NCBI GenBank assembly: GCA_036003705.1
Contig: DASYSE010000102.1
Coordinates: 4,965 to 68,964, forward strand
DNA length: 64,000 nucleotides
Reading direction: 5' to 3'
Origin: Actinomycetes bacterium
Lineage (GTDB): Bacteria; Actinomycetota; CALGFH01
The position numbers were made by a program, and so were the translations under genes. Under the pieces are notes generated by a model. The model was not told the DNA's origin. It searched no databases and saw nothing but the letters and a program-made list of their open reading frames with translations. Position 1 is the first letter of the stretch. Every line of letters begins with the position of its first letter. Shown here piece by piece: positions 21,196 through 53,066 of the stretch.

Positions 21196-22128
21196 ATGCC
21201 GCCACTGACGCCGCTGGACATCCAACACAAAGAATTCACCAAGGCCATGCGCGGGTACGCCATGCACGAGGTGGACACCTTCCTCGATCAGGTCACCGAG
21301 GAGTTCACTCGGATGCAGGACGAGATCGCCCGCCTCCGGGAGCAGGCTTCCAGCACGACGCCGTCGCAGCCCGCCCCGGTGCAGGTGCAGCAGGCCCCGC
21401 CGCCTCCGCCCCCGCAGCCGGTGGCCGCCGAGCCGCGCAGTGCCGGTGGCGAGGAGGCGATCGCCCGGGCCCTGGTCATGGCCCAGCGGATGGCCGACCA
21501 GACGGTCGAGGAGGCCAAGGTCAAGGCCAAGTCGATGGTCGCCGAGGCCGAGGCGCGCGCCAAGAACATGACCGAGCAGGCGCAGATGCGCGCCCGCGAG
21601 GTCACCGAGGCCGCCCAGATGCGCGCCCGCGAGGTCACCGAGGCCGCTCAGATGCGCGCCCGCGAGGTCACCGAGGCCGCCCAGGCCAGGGCCCGCGAGC
21701 TCACCGAGGGCCTGGAGACCCGCTACAAGGAGCGGATCCAGTCGGCCGAGGCCCGCGCCCGCGTTGCCGAGGAGCAGGCCCGCATGCAGATCGCCCAGGC
21801 GACCGAGCAGGTGGCCAGGCGCCGTCAGGAGCTCGAGAGCTCCATCGAGGCACTGCGTGCGTTCGAGCGCGACTACCGCGCCCGGCTCCGCGGCTTCGTC
21901 GAGGGCCAGCTCAAGGCGCTCGAGGACGCGGCCCCGTCCGGGCCGGTCGCCCCACCGCAGCCGCCAGGCCTCGGCGGGAACTCGCGGCCCCTGCCCGGCG
22001 CCGACGACCTGCCGGCCCTGTCGACCGGGGCGCGCCAGAGCTCCTACTCGGCCCTGCGCGACTCGACCTCCGACCAGCTCGGCCACAACGGTCGCGACCG
22101 CGTCGACCGGCTGCGTCACGACGACTGA
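21196..22128 (+). CDS. divIVA: DivIVA/Wag31-family coiled-coil cell-pole/septum protein
   Basis: MPPLTPLDIQHKEFTKAMRGYAMHEVDTFLDQV is the lipid-binding DivIVA N-domain. It is followed by long coiled-coil regions. Confidence 0.9.
   Translation: MPPLTPLDIQHKEFTKAMRGYAMHEVDTFLDQVTEEFTRMQDEIARLREQASSTTPSQPAPVQVQQAPPPPPPQPVAAEPRSAGGEEAIARALVMAQRMADQTVEEAKVKAKSMVAEAEARAKNMTEQAQMRAREVTEAAQMRAREVTEAAQMRAREVTEAAQARARELTEGLETRYKERIQSAEARARVAEEQARMQIAQATEQVARRRQELESSIEALRAFERDYRARLRGFVEGQLKALEDAAPSGPVAPPQPPGLGGNSRPLPGADDLPALSTGARQSSYSALRDSTSDQLGHNGRDRVDRLRHDD
21580..21711 (+). repeat. 33-bp in-frame tandem repeat (3 near-perfect copies plus 1 degenerate) inside divIVA, encoding AQMRAREVTEA x3
   Basis: gcgcagatgcgcgcccgcgaggtcaccgaggcc repeated head-to-tail. 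Confidence 0.8.
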
Positions 22129-32958: not shown

Positions 32959-33102
32959 CAGGCGTCCCGGCTCGCGTCCGTGCGGCCGCCGCGCGGGAGG
33001 TGCCGCGGATCACCCGCCTGGGGGTGCGGACCGCCGGGCTCGCGTCCGTGCGGCCGCCGCGTGGGAGGGGCCGCGGATCAGCCGCCTGGGGGTGCTGACC
33101 GC
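32959..33102 (+). repeat. 68-bp tandem repeat (~2.1 copies, ~93% identical) in the divergent intergenic region between the Lon-N gene and hisD
   Basis: GGCTCGCGTCCGTGCGGCCGCCGCG(C/T)GGGAGG(T/G)GCCGCGGATCA(C/G)CCGCCTGGGGGTGC(G/T)GACCGCC occurs at 32959-33026 and 33027-33094, with a partial third start at 33095. Confidence 0.75.
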
Positions 33103-33250
33103 CCGGCTCGCCGGACGGCACGGTGCGCAGGCGTCATCCCAGCAGCTTCGCCGTGGCGGTGGGCGCGCCGGTCGCCGGCCGCCAGGGGGCTGCGGTAGGG
33201 TGAATCCCGACCCCGACGTCCGTCCTCTGCTGTCCATGGAGTGAGTTGCC

Positions 33251-43358: not shown

Positions 43359-43811
43359 ATGTCCGAGCTCTCGACCGGGGCTGTCGACGACGCCGTCGCC
43401 GGCCTCGCCTTCGACGCCGCCGGCCTGCTCCCGGCGGTTGTCCAGGACGACACCGACGGCGCCGTCCTGATGGTCGCCTGGATGGACGCGGAGGCGGTCC
43501 GGCGCACCCTCACCACCGGCCGTACCTGGTTCTGGAGTCGTTCCCGCCGCCGCTACTGGCAGAAGGGGGAGACCTCCGGCAACGTCCAGCAGGTCCGTTC
43601 GGTGACCGCCGACTGCGACCGCGACTGTCTCCTCGTTCGGGTGGAGCAGGTTGGGCCGGCGTGCCACACCGGCACGCGAAGCTGTTTCAGCGACACGCTG
43701 GTGATCGCCGATGGTGCGCGGCTCGGGGATGTGACCTCGGGCCCGGTTCACCGGGGCGGCGACCCCGAGGCCCCCCAGGCGGACCCCGAGCGGGCGGGGG
43801 CCGGCTCGTGA
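43359..43811 (+). CDS. hisI: Phosphoribosyl-AMP cyclohydrolase
   Basis: [26 protein letters not shown]...[23 protein letters not shown]...CDRDCLL...CHTG. Confidence 0.85.
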
Positions 43812-45358
43812 CCGCCGCGCCTGGCGGCGTCCTGCCGGGGATCGAGGAGTTCGTGCGCCTGGCAGGGGAGCACTCGGTGGTGCCGGTCTGGCGGGAGCTG
43901 CTCGGCGACCTGGAGACGCCGGTTGGGGCGTTCCGCAAGCTCGGCGACCAGGACGGCTCGGTGCTGCTGGAGAGCGTCGAGCACGGCGAGCGCTGGGGCC
44001 GGTACTCGTTCATCGGCACCGACCCGTTCGCCACCCTGACCATCAGCGGCGGGCGGGCGTCGTGGACCGGCCGCCCCCCGGCCGGCCTGTCCGACGGGCC
44101 GCCGCTGGCGGTGCTCCGCGAGGCGCTGCGCCGGCTGCGCTCGCCGTCCCTGCCCGGGCTGCCGCCGCTGTTCGCCGGCGCCGTCGGCTACCTCGGCTAC
44201 GACCTGGTCCGCGAGCTGGAGCGCCTGCCCGACCAGACCGAGGACGATCTCCGGTTGCCCGACGGGGTGCTGGTCTTCCCCCGCTCGGTGGTCGTCTTCG
44301 ACCACCTCGGGCAGCGCCTGGTGCTGGTGGCCAACGTGGTCGTCAACCAGGCGACCGACCTGGACGCCGCCTTTGCCGACGCCTGCAGGCGCCTGGACGC
44401 CCTGGCCGCGCGGTTGTCGGTGCCGGTGGGGACGGTGCCGACCCCCCTGCCGGCGGCCGGCCCGCCGGCGGCCGCCTCCAGCGACCTGGCGCCGGGCCGC
44501 TACCAGGAGATGGTTCGGATCGCCAAGGAGCACATCCGGGCCGGCGACATCTTCCAGGTGGTCCCGTCGCAGCGGTTCTCGGTGCCGACCACCGCCGACC
44601 CGTTCGACGTCTACCGGGTCCTGCGGGTGGTCAACCCCTCCCCGTACATGTACTTCCTGCGCCTGCCGGGCGTGACCATCGCCGGCTCGTCGCCGGAGGT
44701 GCTGGTCACCGTCCAGGGTCGCCGGGCCACCATGCGGCCGATCGCCGGCACCCGGCCGCGTGGCGTCGACCAGGAGGCCGACCTGGCGCTGGAGGCCGAG
44801 CTCCAGGCCGACCAGAAGGAGCGGGCCGAGCACGTCATGCTGGTCGACCTGGCCCGCAACGACCTCGGCCGGGTCTGCCGGCCGGGCACCGTCAAGGTCG
44901 ACGACTTCATGCGGGTCGAGCGCTACTCCCACGTCATGCACCTGGTCTCCGACGTGACCGGGGAGCTGGCCGACGGGGTGGCGGCGTTCGACGTGCTGGC
45001 GGCCTGCTTCCCGGCGGGCACGGTGTCCGGGGCTCCCAAGGTCCGGGCGATGGAGATCATCGACGACCTGGAGCGCCACCGCCGCGGGCCCTACGCCGGC
45101 TGCGTCGGCTACTTCGACTTCTCCGGCAACCTCGACACCTGCATCACCATCCGGACGTTCGTGTTCGTGGACGGCGTCGCCTACTGCCAGGCCGGCGCCG
45201 GGGTGGTGGCCGACTCGGTTCCCGAGCGCGAGGAGCGCGAGACCGAAGCCAAGGCCGGCGCCCTGCTGGCCGCCGTCGCCGCCGCCCAGGCCCTCTCCGA
45301 CGCTCCATCGGCCCCCCGCGACGGCCATCGGCCGGCCGCCGCCCATGCCGGTGGCTGA
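43808..45358 (+). CDS. trpE: Anthranilate synthase component I
   Basis: Chorismate-binding enzyme motifs ([52 protein letters not shown]). The GTG overlaps the hisI stop. Confidence 0.9.
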
Positions 45359-46118
45359 CAACGGCCCCGCCGGCAGGGCGGACGGTCCAGCACCGGCCGG
45401 TCGGGGGGCCCCCCTGCGCGGCTCGGCTGGCAGGGCGGACGGTCCAGCACCGGCCGGTCGGGGGGCTCCCCCGCGCGGCTCGGCCGGCAGGGCGGACGGT
45501 CCAGCACCGGCCGGTCGGGGGGCTCCTCTGGGCGGCCCGGCGCCGCCGGCCCCCGAGCGGCGGTCGCTGCAGCTGGCCCTCGTGGCGGCGGTGGTCGGGG
45601 TGGGGCTGGCCGTGACCGGGGCAGGCCGGCCGTGGGCGACGGTCAGCGCCAACGTCGAGCTGCCCGGGCTCGGCTCGGCCCGGCTCGGCGCCGCCGAGGT
45701 CACCGGCAACGACCTGCTGCCCCTCGGCGGGCTCGCCCTGCTCGGGCTGGTGCTGCTGGTCGGGGTGGCCGTGACCAGGGGGCACGGCCGCTGGGCGGTG
45801 GGGCTGGCCCTGCTCGCCCTGGGCGGCGCCCTGGCCGTTGGAGCCGTGGTGGGCGGGAACCGGGTCGGCGCCGAGGCCGCCGAACGGGCCGAGCTCGGGC
45901 TGCTGGAGGGGGTGCCCGGCGGGACCGGCGTCCAGGTCGCCACCCCGAGGGCCGGCCCGGTCCTGGTCGTGGCCGGCGGCCTGCTGCTGGCCCTGGCCGG
46001 CCTGGAGGCGCTCCGGCGCGGGCCGCGCTGGCCGGCGCTCGGCGACGCCTTCCGGGCTCCGCCCGACCGCGTCCAGCCGGTCGCCGACCCCGGCGAGCCG
46101 CCCTGGGAAGGTGACTGA
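45345..46118 (+). CDS. Trp-cluster-associated polytopic membrane protein (TrpX-like, Rv1610-type), with a repetitive Pro/Gly/Ala-rich N-terminus
   Basis: Four hydrophobic helices. The position between trpE and trpC matches the conserved actinobacterial 'Trp region membrane protein'. It overlaps the trpE end by 14 nt. Confidence 0.5.
   Translation: MPVADNGPAGRADGPAPAGRGAPLRGSAGRADGPAPAGRGAPPRGSAGRADGPAPAGRGAPLGGPAPPAPERRSLQLALVAAVVGVGLAVTGAGRPWATVSANVELPGLGSARLGAAEVTGNDLLPLGGLALLGLVLLVGVAVTRGHGRWAVGLALLALGGALAVGAVVGGNRVGAEAAERAELGLLEGVPGGTGVQVATPRAGPVLVVAGGLLLALAGLEALRRGPRWPALGDAFRAPPDRVQPVADPGEPPWEGD
45372..45542 (+). repeat. 57-bp in-frame tandem repeat x3, encoding GRADGPAPAGRGAP(L/P)RGSA, within the trpX-like N-terminus
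   Basis: ggcagggcggacggtccagcaccggccggtcggggggc(c/t)cccctgcgcggctcggc(t/c) repeated three times. Confidence 0.8.
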
Positions 46119-46211
46119 CCAGGGACCTTACCGCCCTCGAACGAGGCGACCAGCGTCCCCGAACCTGCTCGGGCGATGCTACGGTCGGCCCAACGGCGGA
46201 AAGGGGACTGG

Positions 46212-46979
46212 TTGACGCCCGAGCACCCCTCCAAGGGGACCGTGCTGCTGGTCGAGGACGAGGAGTCCATCGCCGACCTGGTCCGGCTGTACCTGGAGCG
46301 CGATGGCTTCCAGGTGGTGTGGCGCACCGACGGCCCGTCCGGCCTGGCCGCGGTCGACGCCGAGCGTCCCCGGCTGGTGCTGCTGGACCTGATGCTGCCC
46401 GGCATGGACGGGTTCGAGGTGACCAGGGCGCTGCGCGAGCGGGGCGGCCGGGTGCCGATCATCGTGGTGACGGCCAGGGAGGAGGAGGCCGACCGGGTGC
46501 TCGGCCTCGAGCTCGGCGCCGACGACTACGTGACCAAGCCGTTCTCGCCCCGCGAGCTGGTGGCCCGCGTCAAGGCGGTGCTGCGCCGCGCCGAGCCCGA
46601 GCCGAGGGCCGGTCTGGAGCCGCCGCTGCACCTCGGCAGCCTCACCGTCGACCCGGCCCGCCACGAGGTCGTGTTCGAGGGCCGCCCGGTGCAGCTCACC
46701 GCCCGCGAGTTCGAGCTGCTCTGCTACCTGGTCCGCAACCGGGGCCTGGTCCTGACCCGGGACCAGATCCTCGAGCGCGTCTGGGGCTACTCGTTCCCGG
46801 CCGACACCCGGACCGTCGACGTCCACATCCGCCAGCTTCGCGCCAAGCTGGGTGAGCGCGCCCCCATCGCCACCATCCGCGGCGTCGGCTACAAGGCAGA
46901 GGACCGCGGGAGCGTCCCAGGCGCCCAAGGGGGGCCATCCATGGGGCCCGGCCCCCGGCCCGGGTCGGAGCAGGGCTGA
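46212..46979 (+). CDS. OmpR/PhoB-family two-component response regulator
   Basis: Receiver domain (LLVEDEE...DGFQVV...LVLLDLMLPGMDG...GADDYVTKPF) plus a winged-helix DNA-binding domain (LTAREFELLCYLVRNRGLVLTRDQILERVWGY...RTVDVHIRQLRAKL). Probable TTG start at 46212 after an AAAGGGGA RBS. The track's ATG at 46176 is an alternative. Confidence 0.85.
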   Translation: MTPEHPSKGTVLLVEDEESIADLVRLYLERDGFQVVWRTDGPSGLAAVDAERPRLVLLDLMLPGMDGFEVTRALRERGGRVPIIVVTAREEEADRVLGLELGADDYVTKPFSPRELVARVKAVLRRAEPEPRAGLEPPLHLGSLTVDPARHEVVFEGRPVQLTAREFELLCYLVRNRGLVLTRDQILERVWGYSFPADTRTVDVHIRQLRAKLGERAPIATIRGVGYKAEDRGSVPGAQGGPSMGPGPRPGSEQG

Positions 46980-48481
46980 TGGGGCGGGGCGGGGGGTCGT
47001 TGCGGGGACGGCTGGTGCTGGCGTTCGTGGCCGTCGCCGTCCTGGCCGCCGTGCTGATCGGGGTCATCACCCTGTCCCTGGTCCGCCTGGTGCCCGAGCG
47101 CGGCCTGGAGCGGCAGCTCGCCGACCAGGCGGTGGCCGTCACCGAGGCGGCCAACGGCCCGCCCCCTGCCCGAGGGGTGTGCGCGTTCGTCCGCGCCCTC
47201 CGGGTCGGCGACACCGAGGCGTACAGACTGGGCCGCAACGACCGGACGACCACGCCGCTCGCGGTCGCCTGCCAGCCACCCGGCCGCCGGCGCGGGATCC
47301 CCCTGGCCCCGGTCCCCGACATCGACCTGGCCGCCACCCTGGCCCGAGGCGAGGTCGTCAGCGGCACCAGCGACGGGCTGGCCTGGGCGGTCGCCCCGGC
47401 CGAGCGGGCCGTCCGCGGCGGCCGCGGCGGCGTGCTGCTGGTCCACGAGGTCCGCCGCCTCGGCGTCAGCCTGTTCCCGGTCGTCGCCTGGCGGCTGCTG
47501 CTGGCGACCGCCCTGGCCGTCGTGGTGGCGGCGCTGGTCGCCTGGCTGCTGGCCGGCCGGCTCACCGCGCCGCTCGGCCGGCTGGTCGCGGCCGCCCGCC
47601 GTGTCGGCGGCGGTGACCTGTCGACAAGGGTGCAAGTCGACGGCGACGACGAGGCTGCCGAGGTGGCCTCGGCCTTCAACGACATGGCCGCCGGCCTGGA
47701 GCGCGCCCAGGGCGAGCAGCGCGCGTTCCTGGCCAGCGTTGGCCACGAGCTCAAGACCCCCCTCACCACCATCCAGGGCTACACCGAGGCGCTGCTGGAC
47801 GGCACCGTCGAGGACCCGGCCGAGCGCCGCCGCTCGCTGGTCCGGGTCCACGCCGAGACCGTCCGCCTGGCCCGCCTCATCCAGGACCTGCTCGACCTGG
47901 CCCGCCTCGGCCGCGGCCAGTTCGCCGTCAGCACCGTCGACGCCGATGTCGGCGCCGTGCTGCGGGAGGCGGTGGCGGCGGCCACCGAACGGGCATCCCG
48001 GCGCGAGGTCACCGTCACCACCCGCCTCGCCCGCGTCCTCCACGCCCACGTGGACCCTGGCCGGCTCCGCCAGGTGCTGGACAACCTGCTCGACAACGCC
48101 ACCCGCTCCAGCCCCCCCGGCCGCCAGGTGCTGGTCGCGGCCAGGCCGCTGGACGGTGGCGGGGTTGAGGCGGCCGTGGTCGACCAGGGCCCCGGCATCT
48201 CGGCCGAGGACCTGCCCCACGCCTTCGACCGCGGCCATCTGTGGTCCCGCTACCGAGGCACCCGCGAGGTCGGTTCCGGTCTCGGCCTGGCGATCGTCAA
48301 AGCCCTCTGCGACGCCATGGGCGTCGCCATCCGCGCCGAGTCCGGGAACGGCGGCGGCACCGCCTTCCGCCTCATCCTCCCCCCGGCCCGCACCGCGCCG
48401 CCCAGCGGCGGCCCACCGATCGGCCCGACCACCCCGACCGAGCTTCCCACCCGCCCGCTGCCCCGAGCCCGCGGCCGATGA
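46979..48481 (+). CDS. Sensor histidine kinase (HAMP-HisKA-HATPase), partner of the upstream regulator
   Basis: Two TM segments, HAMP, H-box SVGHELKTPLTTIQGY, N-box LDNLLDNATRSS, and G-boxes DQGPGI / GSGLGLAIV. The ATG overlaps the regulator stop. Confidence 0.85.
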   Translation: MGRGGGSLRGRLVLAFVAVAVLAAVLIGVITLSLVRLVPERGLERQLADQAVAVTEAANGPPPARGVCAFVRALRVGDTEAYRLGRNDRTTTPLAVACQPPGRRRGIPLAPVPDIDLAATLARGEVVSGTSDGLAWAVAPAERAVRGGRGGVLLVHEVRRLGVSLFPVVAWRLLLATALAVVVAALVAWLLAGRLTAPLGRLVAAARRVGGGDLSTRVQVDGDDEAAEVASAFNDMAAGLERAQGEQRAFLASVGHELKTPLTTIQGYTEALLDGTVEDPAERRRSLVRVHAETVRLARLIQDLLDLARLGRGQFAVSTVDADVGAVLREAVAAATERASRREVTVTTRLARVLHAHVDPGRLRQVLDNLLDNATRSSPPGRQVLVAARPLDGGGVEAAVVDQGPGISAEDLPHAFDRGHLWSRYRGTREVGSGLGLAIVKALCDAMGVAIRAESGNGGGTAFRLILPPARTAPPSGGPPIGPTTPTELPTRPLPRARGR

Positions 48482-48547: not shown

Positions 48548-49411
48548 GTGACCTCGACCGGTTCCTTCCTTGCCCGGGCGGTGGCCGACGCCAGGTCGGA
48601 CGCCGAGCGCCGGGCGGCACGCCTGCCCCCTGCCGCGGTGCGGGCTGCCGCGGCGACCGCCCCGACCGCACGGGGGCTGCGGGCCGCTGTCGGTCGCGGG
48701 CCGGAGGGGCCCCGAGTGATCGCCGAGGTCAAACGCCGTTCGCCATCCAAGGGCGACATCCGCATCGACCTCGACCCGGCCGCCCTGGCCGCCGCCTACG
48801 CCGCCGGCGGCGCCTGCGCGATCAGCGTCCTGACCGAGCCGCGCCATTTCGCCGGCAGCCCCGCCGACCTGCTGGCGGCGCGGGCCGCGGTCGAGCTGCC
48901 GGTGCTCCGCAAGGACTTCGTCACCACCCCCTACCAGGTGTGGGAGGCGCGCGCCTGGGGCGCCGACGCGGTCCTGCTGATCGTGGCCGCGCTCCGGCCC
49001 GCCGAGCTCCGCGCCCTGCTCGACGAGACCGCCGAGGCGGGCCTGGACGCGCTGGTCGAGGTCCACACGGTGGCCGAGGCGGAGGCGGCCGCCTCCGCCG
49101 GCGCCAACCTGGTCGGGGTGAACGCCCGCGACCTGGCCACCCTCCAGGTCGACCCCGGCCGCTTCGCCGACGTCCGCCAGGCCCTGCCCGGCGGGACGAT
49201 CCTGGTCGCCGAGAGCGGCATCCGCGACCGCGCCGACGTGCAGGCGGCCGGCGACGCCGGCGCCGACGCCGTCCTGGTCGGCGAGGCCCTGGTCCGCGCC
49301 GACGATCCGACGAAGGCCGTCCGCGAGCTTCTTGCGTCGTCGGATCGTCGGGATGCGATGGACCGGCAGGGCGCAAGCGCTGCCACCGAGCCCGTTCCTG
49401 CTGAGCAATAG
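48548..49411 (+). CDS. trpC: Indole-3-glycerol phosphate synthase
   Basis: [52 protein letters not shown]. Confidence 0.85.
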
Positions 49412-49419
49412 GAGGACAG

Positions 49420-50727
49420 ATGGCCGCGCCCCGCAAGATCCTGCTCGGTGAGGACGAGCTGCCGACCGCCTGGTTCAACATCGTGCCCTCGATGCCGACC
49501 AAGCCCGATCCCTACCTGCACCCGCAGACCCGCGAGCCGGTCGGGCCGGACGCGCTGGCGCCGCTGTTCCCCATGGCCCTGATCGGCCAGGAGGTCTCCA
49601 CCGACCAGTGGGTCGACATCCCCGGTCCGGTGCTCGACACCTACAAGCTGTGGCGGCCGACCCCGCTGGTCCGCGCGCTCGACCTCGAGCGCGCGCTGGG
49701 CACCCCGGCCCGCATCTACTACAAATACGAGGGCGGGTCGCCGGCCGGCTCCCACAAGCCCAACACCGCCGTCGCGCAGGCGTTCTACAACAAGGCCGAG
49801 GGTATCGCCCGGCTCAGCACCGAGACCGGGGCCGGCCAGTGGGGCAGCGCCCTGGCGTTCGCCTGCGCCCGGTTCGGCCTGGAGTGCAAGGTCTACATGG
49901 TGCGGGCCTCCTACGACGGCAAGCCCTACCGGCGCTCGCTCATGGAGACCTGGGGGGCCAGCGTCATCCCGTCGCCGTCGCCGGAGACCAACGCCGGCCG
50001 GGCCGTCCTCGGCCAGCACCCCGACTCGCCCGGGTCGCTCGGCATCGCCATCTCCGAGGCGGTCGAGGACGCCGCCCTGCGCGAGGACACCCACTACGCG
50101 CTCGGCAGCGTGCTCAACCACGTGCTGCTCCACCAGACCGTCATCGGCCTCGAGCTGAAGGCGCAGCTCGAGCAGGCCGGCGTCGAGCCCGACGTGCTGG
50201 TGGCCTGCGTCGGCGGCGGGTCCAACTTCGGCGGCTTCACCTTCCCGCTGCTGGCCGAGAAGCTGGCCGGCCGCAGGAGCACCAGGGTCGTCGCGGTCGA
50301 ACCGACCGCGGCCCCGACCCTCACCGAGGGCCGGTTCGAGTACGACCTCGGCGACCAGGCCGGCATGACCCCGCTGCTGCCCATGTACACGCTGGGGGCC
50401 GACTTCATCCCAGCCCCGATCCACGCCGGCGGGCTGCGCTACCACGGCGACTCGCCGCTGGTGTCGCTGCTGCGCAAGGAGGACCACATCGAGGCCGTCG
50501 CCTACCCGCAGTCCAAGGTCTTCGAGGCGGCCGTGCAGTTCGCCCGCACCGAGGGCATCCTGCCGGCCCCCGAGCCGGCGCACGCGATCCGGGCCGTGAT
50601 CGACGAGGCCCTGCGCTGCAAGGAGGAGGGTCGCGAGGAGACCATCGTGTTCAACCTCTGCGGCCACGGCCACTTCGACCTCAAGGCCTACGAGGATTAC
50701 CTGTCCGGGAACCTCCTGGATGTCTGA
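49420..50727 (+). CDS. trpB2: TrpB2-type tryptophan synthase beta-like PLP enzyme (TrpB paralog)
   Basis: Long N-terminus [17 protein letters not shown]..., [29 protein letters not shown] (PLP lysine), [14 protein letters not shown]. Perfect AGGAGGA RBS. Its stop overlaps the next gene's ATG. Confidence 0.8.
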
Positions 50728-52066
50728 CCACGGCCCAGCCGGCATGGGGCACGGTCCGTCGGCGGCCGCCGGGCTGCAGGCCGACGACGGCCCAGCCGGC
50801 TTGGGGCACGCTCCGTCACCGGCCGCCGGGGTGGGCACGGCGGAGGTATTGCACCGGCCGGACCCGCTCGGGCACTTCGGCGCCTGGGGCGGGCGTTTCG
50901 TCCCAGAGGTGCTGATGGCCGCCCTCGACCAGCTCACCGACGCCTTCGAAGAGGCCATCGCCGACCCGGAGTTCGTGGCCGAGCTGGAGGCGTTGCGGCG
51001 CGACTACGCCGGCCGGCCGACCCCGCTGTTCCCGGCCAGGCGGCTGTCGCGGGAGCTGGGACTGCGGCTGTGGCTCAAGCGCGAGGACCTGCTCCACACC
51101 GGCGCCCACAAGCTCAACAACTCCCTCGGCCAGCACCTGCTCACCCGCAGGATGGGCAAGCCGCGGGTGATCGCCGAGACCGGTGCCGGCCAGCACGGCG
51201 TCGCCACCGCCACCGCGGCCGCCCTGCTCGGTCAGGAGTGCGTCGTCTACATGGGCGAGGAGGACACCCGACGCCAGCACCTCAACGTCGTGCGCATGCG
51301 GCTGCTCGGCACCGAGGTGCGGACGGTGGCCACCGGCACCGCGACCCTCAAGGACGCCATCAACGAGGCCCTGCGGGACTGGGTCGAGTCGGTCGGGTCG
51401 ACCCACTACGCCATCGGCTCGGTCGTCGGCCCCCACCCGTTCCCCCTCATGGTCAGGGAGTTCCAGCGGGTGATCGGGGACGAGGCCCGCGGCCAGATCC
51501 TGGCCGCCGAGGGGCGGCTGCCCGACCTGGCCGTGGCCTGCGTCGGCGGCGGGTCGAACGCGGCCGGGCTGTTCGCCGCCTTCATCGACGACGAGCCGGT
51601 TCGCCTGGTCGGGGTCGAGGCCGGCGGCCGCGGGCCCCAGCCGGGCCACCATGGGGCCTCGCTCGGCCTCGGCGAGGCCGGCGTGCTCCACGGCGCCCGC
51701 TCCTACCTGCTCCAGGACGCCGACGGCCAGGTCCTGCCCACCCACTCTGTCTCGGCCGGTCTCGACTACCCGGGGGTCGGCCCGGAGCACGCCTTCTGGA
51801 AGGACGCCGGTCGGGTCTGCTACGAGCGCGCCCTCGACACCCTCGCCCTCGACGGGTTCCGCCTCCTCGCCCGCACCGAGGGCCTGCTTCCCGCCCTCGA
51901 GCCGGCCCACGCGGTCGGCTGGCTCGCTCAGGCCGCCCGCGACGGCCGGGTCGCCCCCGGCTCCCTGGTCGTCCTCAACCTCTCCGGCCGCGGCGACAAG
52001 GACGTCGAGACCGTCTCCGCCCTGCTGGCCGACCCCGACCCTCCACCCGACCCTGCCGATGCCTGA
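50720..52066 (+). CDS. trpB: Tryptophan synthase beta chain (canonical TrpB1), with a repetitive ~40-aa N-terminal extension
   Basis: [38 protein letters not shown] (PLP lysine), [23 protein letters not shown]. The ATG at 50720 overlaps the trpB2 stop. Confidence 0.9.
50726..50839 (+). repeat. 57-bp in-frame tandem repeat x2 ([19 protein letters not shown] / [19 protein letters not shown]) at the trpB N-terminus
   Basis: gaccacggcccagccggcatggggcacggtccgtcggcggccgccgggctgcaggcc followed by a ~75% identical second copy. Confidence 0.75.
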
Positions 52067-52256
52067 CCCCGGACCGCCTGCACCCGCCCCCGGAGCCCCC
52101 GGCGGTCCGGCCGGGTTGGTCGACCAGGGCCCCCCATCCCCCGGTTCCGACCCCGGTGCCGTTGGTGACCCTGCCGGCTCGATGGCGGCGGCCTCCACAT
52201 CCCTGGGATCCCCCGGTTCCGCGGCGGCGGGGACCCGGCTGGGCGTGGCGGCCAGC

Positions 52257-53066
52257 ATGCCGGCGCCGCTGGAGCGGCTGGAGGGGCGGCTGGACCAGCT
52301 GCGGCGGGACGGGACGGCGGCCCTGATCGCCTACGGGGTCGCCGGGTACCCGGACCTGGACGGGTCGCTGGCGGCCTTCCGGGCGATGGCCCAAGCGGGC
52401 GCCGACGTGCTCGAGGTCGGCCCGCCCTACTCCGACCCGCTGATCGACGGGCCGGTCATCCAGCGGGCGGTCACCGCGGCGCTCGACGCCGGGACCCGCC
52501 TGGACGACGTCCTCGGCCTGGTCGACGAGCTGACCGCCAGCGTGGATGCGCCCGTGGTGCTGCTCGTCTACTACAACCTGGTGGCCCACCGCGGCCCCAG
52601 GCGGTTCGCGGCCGAGCTGGCCGCCGCCGGGGCCTGCGGCGCGGTCGTGCCCGACCTGCCGCCCGAGGAGGCGGGGGAGTGGCTGGACGCGGCCCGGGTG
52701 GCCGGGGTCGCCCCGGTGTTCCTGGCCGCCCCGACCTCCAGCGACGCCCGCCTGGCCGCGGTCGCCCGCTCCGGCCGGGGCTTCGTCTACGCCCAGGCGT
52801 CGCTGGGCGTGACCGGCCTGCGGGCCTCGCTGGCCGCCGGCATCGAGGACCTGGTCGGCCGGGTCCGCGCCCACACCGACCTCCCCGTCTGCGCCGGCAT
52901 CGGCGTCTCCACCGCCGAGCAGGCCGCCGAGGTGGCCAGGTTCGCCGACGGCGCCATCGTCGGCACCGCCCTGGTCCGCCGCCTCGGCGACGGCGGCCTC
53001 GACGGCCTGCGGACCCTCACCGCCGAGCTCGCCGACGCCGTCCACACCGCCCGCAGCCGTCGGTGA
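52257..53066 (+). CDS. trpA: Tryptophan synthase alpha chain
   Basis: ALIAYGVAGYPD, LEVGPPYSDPLIDGPVIQ, VLLVYYN, GAVVPDLPPEE, GFVYAQASLGVTG. The start is uncertain, with in-frame ATGs at 52182 and 52257. The track's 51651 start is a frame fusion over trpB. Confidence 0.85.
   Translation: MPAPLERLEGRLDQLRRDGTAALIAYGVAGYPDLDGSLAAFRAMAQAGADVLEVGPPYSDPLIDGPVIQRAVTAALDAGTRLDDVLGLVDELTASVDAPVVLLVYYNLVAHRGPRRFAAELAAAGACGAVVPDLPPEEAGEWLDAARVAGVAPVFLAAPTSSDARLAAVARSGRGFVYAQASLGVTGLRASLAAGIEDLVGRVRAHTDLPVCAGIGVSTAEQAAEVARFADGAIVGTALVRRLGDGGLDGLRTLTAELADAVHTARSRR

Follow-up and report, generated by a model that had tools for sequence, protein, structure and literature searches.

What is a second tryptophan synthase β chain for, and where in the genome does it belong? 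TrpB2 proteins have been sorted by gene context into groups (Merkl 2007; PMC1854888): TrpB2_o is encoded outside the trp operon in genomes that also have trpB1, TrpB2_i is encoded in the operon in genomes without trpB1, and a further group is TrpB2_a. Geobacter was treated as a special case, in which a gene of the _o type sits inside the operon together with trpB1; this state was ascribed to ongoing rearrangement, trpB1 being frameshifted in the Geobacter sulfurreducens operon (Merkl 2007; PMC1854888). Here, we describe a trpB2 gene in a 64,000-nt stretch of the actinomycete contig DASYSE010000102.1 (the window, meaning this whole stretch): in an uncultured soil actinomycete, it occupies the distal portion of a long tryptophan operon with translationally coupled genes and stands directly upstream of an intact canonical trpB1. 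An initial annotation, made from the letters of the window, had noticed two β-chain paralogs placed back to back in the operon and followed by trpA; the order trpC-trpB2-trpB1-trpA bears this out.

The role of TrpB2 is still argued, with indole salvage, O-phosphoserine-dependent synthesis and other functions all in play. The protein has been termed an “indole-scavenging” β2 protein (Aklujkar et al. 2009; PMC2700814). At second hand, TrpB2 enzymes are credited with binding indole tightly (Hettwer & Sterner 2002, as cited in PMC11917138) and with a preference for O-phospho-L-serine (Busch et al. 2014, as cited in PMC11917138), the latter a point that the initial annotation did not carry. Papers cited in the literature also describe a Thermococcus TrpB2 that contributes to both tryptophan synthesis and salvage, and characterized TrpB2 enzymes are cited there as making tryptophan. 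On the other side of the debate, Pyrococcus horikoshii keeps trpB2 without other trp genes, and this had been read as pointing to a different function (Merkl 2007; PMC1854888). Translation of both TrpB2 and the classical synthase off a single mRNA would be natural evidence for a role inside tryptophan biosynthesis, and the clade described here is a convenient system for testing that role. Our literature search found no paper on operon-based trpB2 in Actinobacteria.

We think it probable, though well short of settled, that the locus is a coupled trpB2-trpB1 tandem serving tryptophan synthesis, with TrpB2 as a TrpA-independent enzyme that captures indole. No new family or mechanism is involved: knowledge of the enzyme families is unchanged, and the value of the locus is incremental.

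Two β chains from two families

Both β-chain assignments proposed in the initial annotation hold when each protein is scored on both hidden Markov models (HMMs). TrpB2 exceeds the family threshold both on TIGR01415 (638.1 bits; cut-off 518.85) and on NF009057 (711.1 bits; cut-off 366), and gets 148.3 bits, below the cut-off of 392.45, on the canonical trpB model TIGR00263; TrpB1 reaches 562.6 bits on TIGR00263 and only 147.5 bits on TIGR01415. Each carries the PALP domain (PF00291; 148.5 bits in TrpB2), the fold-type II domain of pyridoxal 5'-phosphate (PLP) enzymes. Another enzyme of this fold, such as a threonine synthase, was the outcome that the annotation had set against its own call; it was rejected because models for threonine synthase, cysteine synthase and dehydratase give at most 54 bits, far under their cut-offs; for the trpB2 product, models of such other enzymes give at most 44 bits, with cut-offs of at least 266.

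The features announced for the 435-residue, ATG-started PLP enzyme, a TrpB2-type N terminus and a lysine motif, are likewise present. The motif is GSHKPNTA (type GSHKxNT), with Lys113 (codon 49756-49758) in a column that is almost invariant in an 11-sequence TrpB2 alignment. TrpB2 has both the longer N-terminal segment and the internal insertion typical of its kind: its alignment with TrpB1 begins at TrpB2 residue 79 and at residue 99 of the 448-residue trpB1 open reading frame (ORF), which is core residue ~50; TrpB1 structures match TrpB2 only from residue ~77; and 10 residues are inserted at 200-209 relative to TrpB1. TrpB1 is the canonical β chain. Its conserved core sets in around residue 45-51 (nt 50852-50870), with a TIGR00263 match from residue 51; its catalytic Lys131 lies in HTGAHK (codon 51110-51112), and among solved structures it comes closest to canonical TrpB chains, namely LBCA TrpB, a reconstructed bacterial ancestor (543 bits), and the bacterial TrpB1 chain 2o2e (506 bits). 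Both genes are intact and keep their catalytic lysines.

The two proteins of the window are anciently diverged (33% identical to each other) and thus are not products of a recent duplication. With the TrpB2s of many bacterial phyla, mostly encoded by stand-alone genes, TrpB2 shares 61-69% identity. The paralogs differ at the position of the TrpB1 active-site Asp: Arg340 of TrpB2 (codon 50437-50439; GGLRYHG), invariant across 11 diverse TrpB2s, aligns with Asp349 of TrpB1 (codon 51764-51766; AGLDYPG). An Arg in place of this TrpB1 Asp has reportedly been proposed to determine the use of O-phosphoserine; by this alignment, the TrpB2 described here would probably use O-phospho-L-serine.

Which of the described groups does this protein resemble? 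With the Thermotoga maritima type (TrpB2_o; TIGR01415/COG1350) it shares the HMM family, the GSHKxNT motif, the N-terminal extension and a host with an operon-borne trpB1, and by sequence it groups with the mostly stand-alone bacterial TrpB2s; but TrpB2_o genes lie by definition outside the trp operon, whereas this one sits between trpC and trpB1 and is coupled to the latter. With TrpB2_i it shares an operon position. Among solved structures the best match is 6hul chain B (430 bits over residues 11-428), which we take to be the operon-encoded TrpB2i of Sulfolobus solfataricus in complex with TrpA; the TrpB2 chains 4qys and 6hte follow at ~351-352 bits, and TrpB1 chains at no more than 143 bits.

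This likeness raises the possibility that TrpB2 is a TrpA-interacting β chain, so that the cell would assemble two alternative complexes, TrpA-TrpB1 and TrpA-TrpB2. The gene's place in the operon fits the idea, as does the preference for a chain solved with another subunit over the stand-alone 4qys (430 versus 352 bits). The ranking of solved relatives, however, is no fair test, as the PDB list holds no bacterial stand-alone TrpB2, and the sequence is 61-69% identical to the widespread, mostly stand-alone TrpB2s of bacteria. Moreover, TrpB2_i is a feature of genomes without trpB1 (Merkl; PMC1854888) and works with a TrpA2-type α chain; here, an intact trpB1 under selection follows directly, and trpA is of the canonical TIGR00262 type and coupled to trpB1, not to trpB2. 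We regard a TrpA-TrpB2 complex as unlikely. Judging from its homologs, TrpB2 most likely acts as a tryptophan synthase that captures indole with high affinity and independently of TrpA.

The trpB2/trpB1 overlap and its repeats

The initial annotation read the trpB2 stop as overlapping the trpB1 ATG, and the coupling is now firmer than one sequence could have made it. The ATG at 50720 is embedded in the last codons of trpB2, GAT GTC TGA (Asp-Val-stop; TGA at 50725-50727), and the resulting octamer, ATGTCTGA, is identical in 11/11 loci on contigs that encode close relatives, 9 of which represent distinct lineages and were used for codon counts. Could this be a by-product of conservation of the TrpB2 C terminus? 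The Asp codon at the junction is GAT in 9/9 trpB2 orthologs, as opposed to 3/199 (1.5%) of the other Asp codons in these genes, and is the sole GAT in 7 of the 9. Protein conservation does not account for a choice of so rarely used a codon: the overlap is selected, not a product of chance.

How would ribosomes reach trpB1? The two β genes differ in their upstream signals. The AGGAGGA site that the initial annotation pointed out as the ribosome-binding site of trpB2 is present, overlapping the trpC stop TAG (49409-49411), and relatives carry GGAGG- or AAGGA-type Shine-Dalgarno sites at the same place. No strong Shine-Dalgarno sequence was seen before trpB1 in the last 25 nt of trpB2. Together with the conserved overlap, which marks trpB2/trpB1 as a translationally coupled pair, the GAT bias and the in-frame tails described below, this makes it likely that trpB1 is translated by termination-reinitiation.

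What was overlooked at first is what the coupled ATG opens. It does not lead straight into the TrpB1 core; it opens about 45 non-conserved Gly/Ala/Pro-rich residues, most of them encoded in the window by two 57-bp tandem units. From the overlapping ATG to the conserved HFG motif of TrpB1, the distance varies from 26 to 82 residues, with about 10 different lengths, and is in frame in all 11 loci. One relative, L007, whose TrpB2 is 94% identical, lacks the 57-bp repeat and differs from the window by a 75-nt indel; others carry different junction repeats, in two to three or more copies.

A hypervariable extension invites the objection that the overlap is incidental: trpB1 would start at ATG 50744 or later, and the repeats would be an untranslated or partly translated spacer. 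The gene call on an identical JGI contig does use this second in-frame ATG, the extension is built of repeats and unconserved in sequence, and TIGR00263 picks up the protein from residue 51 only. But the rare codon that creates the overlapping ATG is fixed in all nine lineages, the 11 junctions stay in frame despite their many lengths, in eight other loci the overlapping ATG is the start picked by independent gene callers, and ATG 50744 falls inside the window-specific 75-nt insertion, whereas L007 offers no further in-frame ATG before its TrpB1 core begins. The lack of a good Shine-Dalgarno before the overlapping ATG also sits better with coupling than with an incidental overlap. The evidence supports the overlapping ATG as the selected trpB1 start, and a purely incidental overlap appears improbable.

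The repeats at the junction have a counterpart upstream: three 57-bp units (period 57, 3.2 copies, 91% matches) stand directly 3' of the trpE stop. The two arrays belong to one family, with 31/37 identity that includes the stop-codon context; each begins at a stop/start overlap, and each is in frame with the gene downstream, which encodes a membrane protein in one case and TrpB1 in the other. A degenerate form of the 57-bp pattern has five matches in the 64-kb window, where none is expected, all at these two sites. The repeat was not found in 168 other loci and is present only in L001 and L002, which come from the same organism. The coupled junctions of the operon are hot spots of in-frame repeat expansion, and these translated junctions, which carry repeats and evolve fast, are what one would least expect of the locus.

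Variation of this kind is also visible among three loci from separate metagenome samples, L003, L004 and L087: their TrpB2 proteins are identical, and their TrpB1 extensions measure 55, 63 and 82 residues. The differences (trpB1 5' ends from 9301, 9301 and 7801, respectively) come from 24-nt units encoding GTGDRLGG and from a larger duplication, and amount to variation within one population similar to that of variable number tandem repeats. A reading of the junction repeats as structured RNA was tried and dropped, since the junction folds no better than its shuffles (z = -0.64).

Do the arrays resemble any repeat already described? Mycobacterial interspersed repetitive units (MIRUs) are intercistronic tandem repeats of ~50-60 bp found at stop/start overlaps; their units span a multiple of three nucleotides, and close relatives differ in the number of copies. 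The 57-bp units share these traits: three follow trpE and two follow trpB2, both sets at a stop/start overlap, and copy number varies. Unlike MIRUs, which reportedly form a separate mini-ORF that runs up to the start of the next gene and a family dispersed over many loci, the repeats of the window read in frame into trpB1 or the membrane-protein gene and occupy two sites in 64 kb.

One may go further and picture a three-enzyme end of the pathway, in which obligatory reinitiation would supply TrpB2 in a fixed ratio for O-phosphoserine-dependent capture of leaked indole, and MIRU-like repeat tails at trpE/membrane protein, trpB2/trpB1 and trpB1/trpA would tune reinitiation, and with it subunit ratios, between strains. 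This extended scheme is speculative, and we give it little credence as a whole.

Distribution, origin and proposed role of the tandem

Both paralogs are under purifying selection: pairwise ratios of nonsynonymous to synonymous divergence (dN/dS) are 0.13-0.24 for trpB2 and 0.17-0.36 for trpB1, at a synonymous divergence (dS) of 0.25-0.58. Between the window and L007, TrpB2 is 94% and TrpB1 88% identical, with dN/dS of 0.13 versus 0.26. That TrpB2 is the better conserved of the two is the reverse of what is expected of an accessory paralog.

How unusual is the tandem? The initial annotation called an in-operon trpB2 upstream of trpB1 uncommon in bacteria. Neighborhoods were surveyed at the 80 best-scoring TrpB2 loci of GTDB species representatives and the 80 best-scoring of JGI metagenomes, found by a search built on the 11-sequence alignment; TrpB1, TrpA, TrpC and TrpE were located by tblastn, a locus was informative if at least 3 kb flanked it on each side, and the clade of the window was left out. 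Among the 59 informative GTDB loci, five have trpB1 in the locus, as do seven of the 27 metagenomic ones; in neither set is it directly adjacent. Outside the clade, then, trpB1 lies nearby in 12/86 informative loci and directly downstream in 0/86, among these best-scoring loci. The arrangement is thus uncommon, as the annotation had it; what had been missed is that an in-operon trpB2 has a precedent in Geobacter and recurs elsewhere.

The usual in-operon form among the surveyed loci is trpC-trpB2-trpF-trpB1-trpA, seen in Acidimicrobiia, other Actinomycetota, a metagenome-assembled genome (MAG) of Clostridia, Geobacter, Desulfuromonadales and other deltaproteobacterial MAGs. An older statement, that trpB2 occurs in the trp operon only in Geobacteraceae (Aklujkar et al.; PMC2700814), no longer holds, because the gene recurs in the operons of Actinomycetota, Clostridia and several Desulfuromonadales-like lineages. 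The direct coupled tandem is a lineage-specific variant of an arrangement that was known from Geobacter and that the survey extends to several phyla. Like the window, Geobacter has trpB1 as well as a trpB2 of the common bacterial type, the latter placed in the operon 3' of trpC; unlike the window, with its 8-nt overlap between two intact genes, Geobacter (trpE...trpC-trpB2-trpF-trpB1 in locus L061) and six other lineages have trpF between the β genes, and the Geobacter genomes in the literature have either a wider separation of trpB1 and trpA or a frameshifted trpB1. Other positions occur as well: in metagenomic lineages, trpB2 lies upstream of trpE (L100, L138) or after trpA (L123, L149). These head and tail positions point to repeated, positionally independent recruitment of trpB2 to trp operons.

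If the Geobacter operon is being rearranged (Merkl 2007; PMC1854888), is the tandem also a passing redundancy, with one β gene on its way to loss or replacement, as suggested by the frameshifted trpB1 of G. sulfurreducens and by the greater conservation of TrpB2? This is very improbable, for both genes are intact, their dN/dS is well under 1 at the synonymous divergence given above, and every relative examined keeps the arrangement. Equally remote is a TrpB2 that does something other than form tryptophan, for example another PLP-dependent β-substitution, and shares only trp regulation: the long-debated physiological role, the retention of trpB2 in P. horikoshii (Merkl; PMC1854888) and the location of most surveyed bacterial trpB2 genes away from trp genes leave room for it, but repeated and apparently independent recruitment into trp operons (trpC/trpF gap, head and tail) and the tryptophan formed by characterized TrpB2 enzymes speak against it.

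Where did the tandem come from? Two related actinobacterial loci, L010 and L081, have the order trpC-trpB2-trpF-trpB1-trpA, and in a neighbor-joining tree (no bootstrap support) the window clade stands beside actinobacterial sequences that include two trpF-containing operons. The same unsupported tree sets the operon copies of Geobacter type and of Clostridia apart from this group, and such scattered positions suggest several independent recruitments. The tandem most likely arose from an actinobacterial trpC-trpB2-trpF-trpB1-trpA operon, in a lineage without trpF at that position, trpF presumably having been lost. A search for a trpF gene in the window, or for a trpF remnant in the linker, gave no match better than E = 2.5. 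The idea that the coupled ATG was inherited from the trpF start was not supported, as trpF does not overlap trpB2 in L010 or L081.

Fusion may occur on the other side of trpB2. Two metagenomic relatives, P0003 (681 residues) and P0009 (658 residues), are gene calls that join indole-3-glycerol-phosphate synthase (trpC) to TrpB2. The former resembles a frameshift in the 3' end of trpC; the latter is an in-frame read-through on a short contig and may be a true trpC-trpB2 fusion or a lost stop codon.

How would the coupled tandem work? TrpB1 and TrpA would form the ordinary tryptophan synthase. TrpB2 would be made from the same mRNA, starting from its own strong Shine-Dalgarno on the trpC stop codon, and ribosomes that finish trpB2 would restart at the embedded ATG to translate trpB1. 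The restart codon would be followed by a disordered-looking Gly/Ala/Pro-rich TrpB1 tail, whose length shifts fast through gain and loss of tandem repeats. TrpB2 would turn indole that escapes TrpA-TrpB1, or that enters the cell, into tryptophan, and its position just 5' of trpB1, combined with obligatory reinitiation, would fix its synthesis to that of the synthase.

Several points weigh against this account: (i) the role proposed for TrpB2 in this clade is taken over from homologs; (ii) the putative O-phosphoserine preference rests on homology and one aligned Arg with a reportedly proposed role; (iii) the second-ATG gene call on the JGI contig makes the exact N terminus of TrpB1 in this strain less certain; (iv) the survey covers the 160 best-scoring loci, a sample and not a census; and (v) no trp genes neighbor the sister loci L013 and L050, which, together with the lack of bootstrap support for the tree, makes loss of trpF only one reading of the history.

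Layout of the operon

The genes run in the order hisI-trpE-membrane protein-response regulator-histidine kinase-trpC-trpB2-trpB1-trpA (Table 1), and this order is shared by all close relatives retrieved, which come from soil metagenomes and from MAGs labeled Actinomycetes or Actinomycetota and have a TrpB2 84-94% identical to that of the window. At the hisI/trpE junction the stop of hisI and the GTG that starts trpE overlap as GTGA, and trpE orthologs in the relatives carry the Pfam domain Chorismate_bind. The last gene is trpA, since the next gene lies on the opposite strand.

Table 1. Features of the operon, in window coordinates.
Feature	Position	Strand	Remarks
hisI	43359-43811		upstream neighbor of trpE
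trpE, anthranilate synthase component I	43808-45358	+	upstream part of the same operon
Trp_oprn_chp membrane-protein ORF	45345-46118		ATG overlaps trpE stop by 14 nt
three 57-bp tandem units	45361-45531	+	directly 3' of trpE stop; period 57, 3.2 copies, 91% matches
response regulator and HAMP histidine kinase pair	46176-48481		between membrane-protein gene and trpC
trpC, indole-3-glycerol-phosphate synthase	48548-49411	+	NF001377 261 bits (cut-off 260); PF00218 255.8 bits
trpB2 Shine-Dalgarno AGGAGGA	49410-49416	+	3 nt before trpB2 ATG
trpB2, TrpB-like PLP enzyme of TrpB2 type	49420-50727	+	435 residues, ATG start
ATGTCTGA, 8-nt overlap of trpB1 start and trpB2 end	50720-50727	+	trpB2 tail GAT GTC TGA
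trpB1, canonical tryptophan synthase β chain	50720-52066	+	448 residues from overlapping ATG
two 57-bp tandem units	50730-50843	+	encode most of TrpB1 extension in the window
ATGCCTGA, 8-nt overlap of trpA start and trpB1 stop	52059-52066	+	in-frame trpA ATG at 52059
trpA, tryptophan synthase α chain	52059-53066	+	TIGR00262 226 bits (cut-off 102); PF00290 253.8 bits

Between 42800 and 53600, an Rfam search gave no match at E ≤ 1, and a promoter/terminator scan found nothing beyond shuffled expectation; nothing thus points to a promoter, terminator, attenuator or riboswitch inside the operon near the β genes. The response regulator/histidine kinase pair is kept in most relatives, at times with an extra Kelch-repeat gene; L088 is without it, and its trpC lies nearer to the membrane-protein gene. 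Two further tandem repeats of the window, at 21583-21709 (33 bp x 3.8, 91%) and 32966-33111 (68 bp x 2.1, 92%), have no sequence relationship with the 57-bp units.

The downstream junction resembles the one between the β genes in its coupling: trpA adjoins trpB1 through ATGCCTGA. The same overlap recurs in L003 (10628), L004 (10652) and L087 (9209), and other relatives have ATGA or GTGA at this point. The trpA ORF, too, begins with an extension, about 70 Pro/Ala/Gly-rich residues before the TrpA core (core from ~52269; HMM match from ~52290), and among relatives the TrpA extensions measure 8-62 residues.

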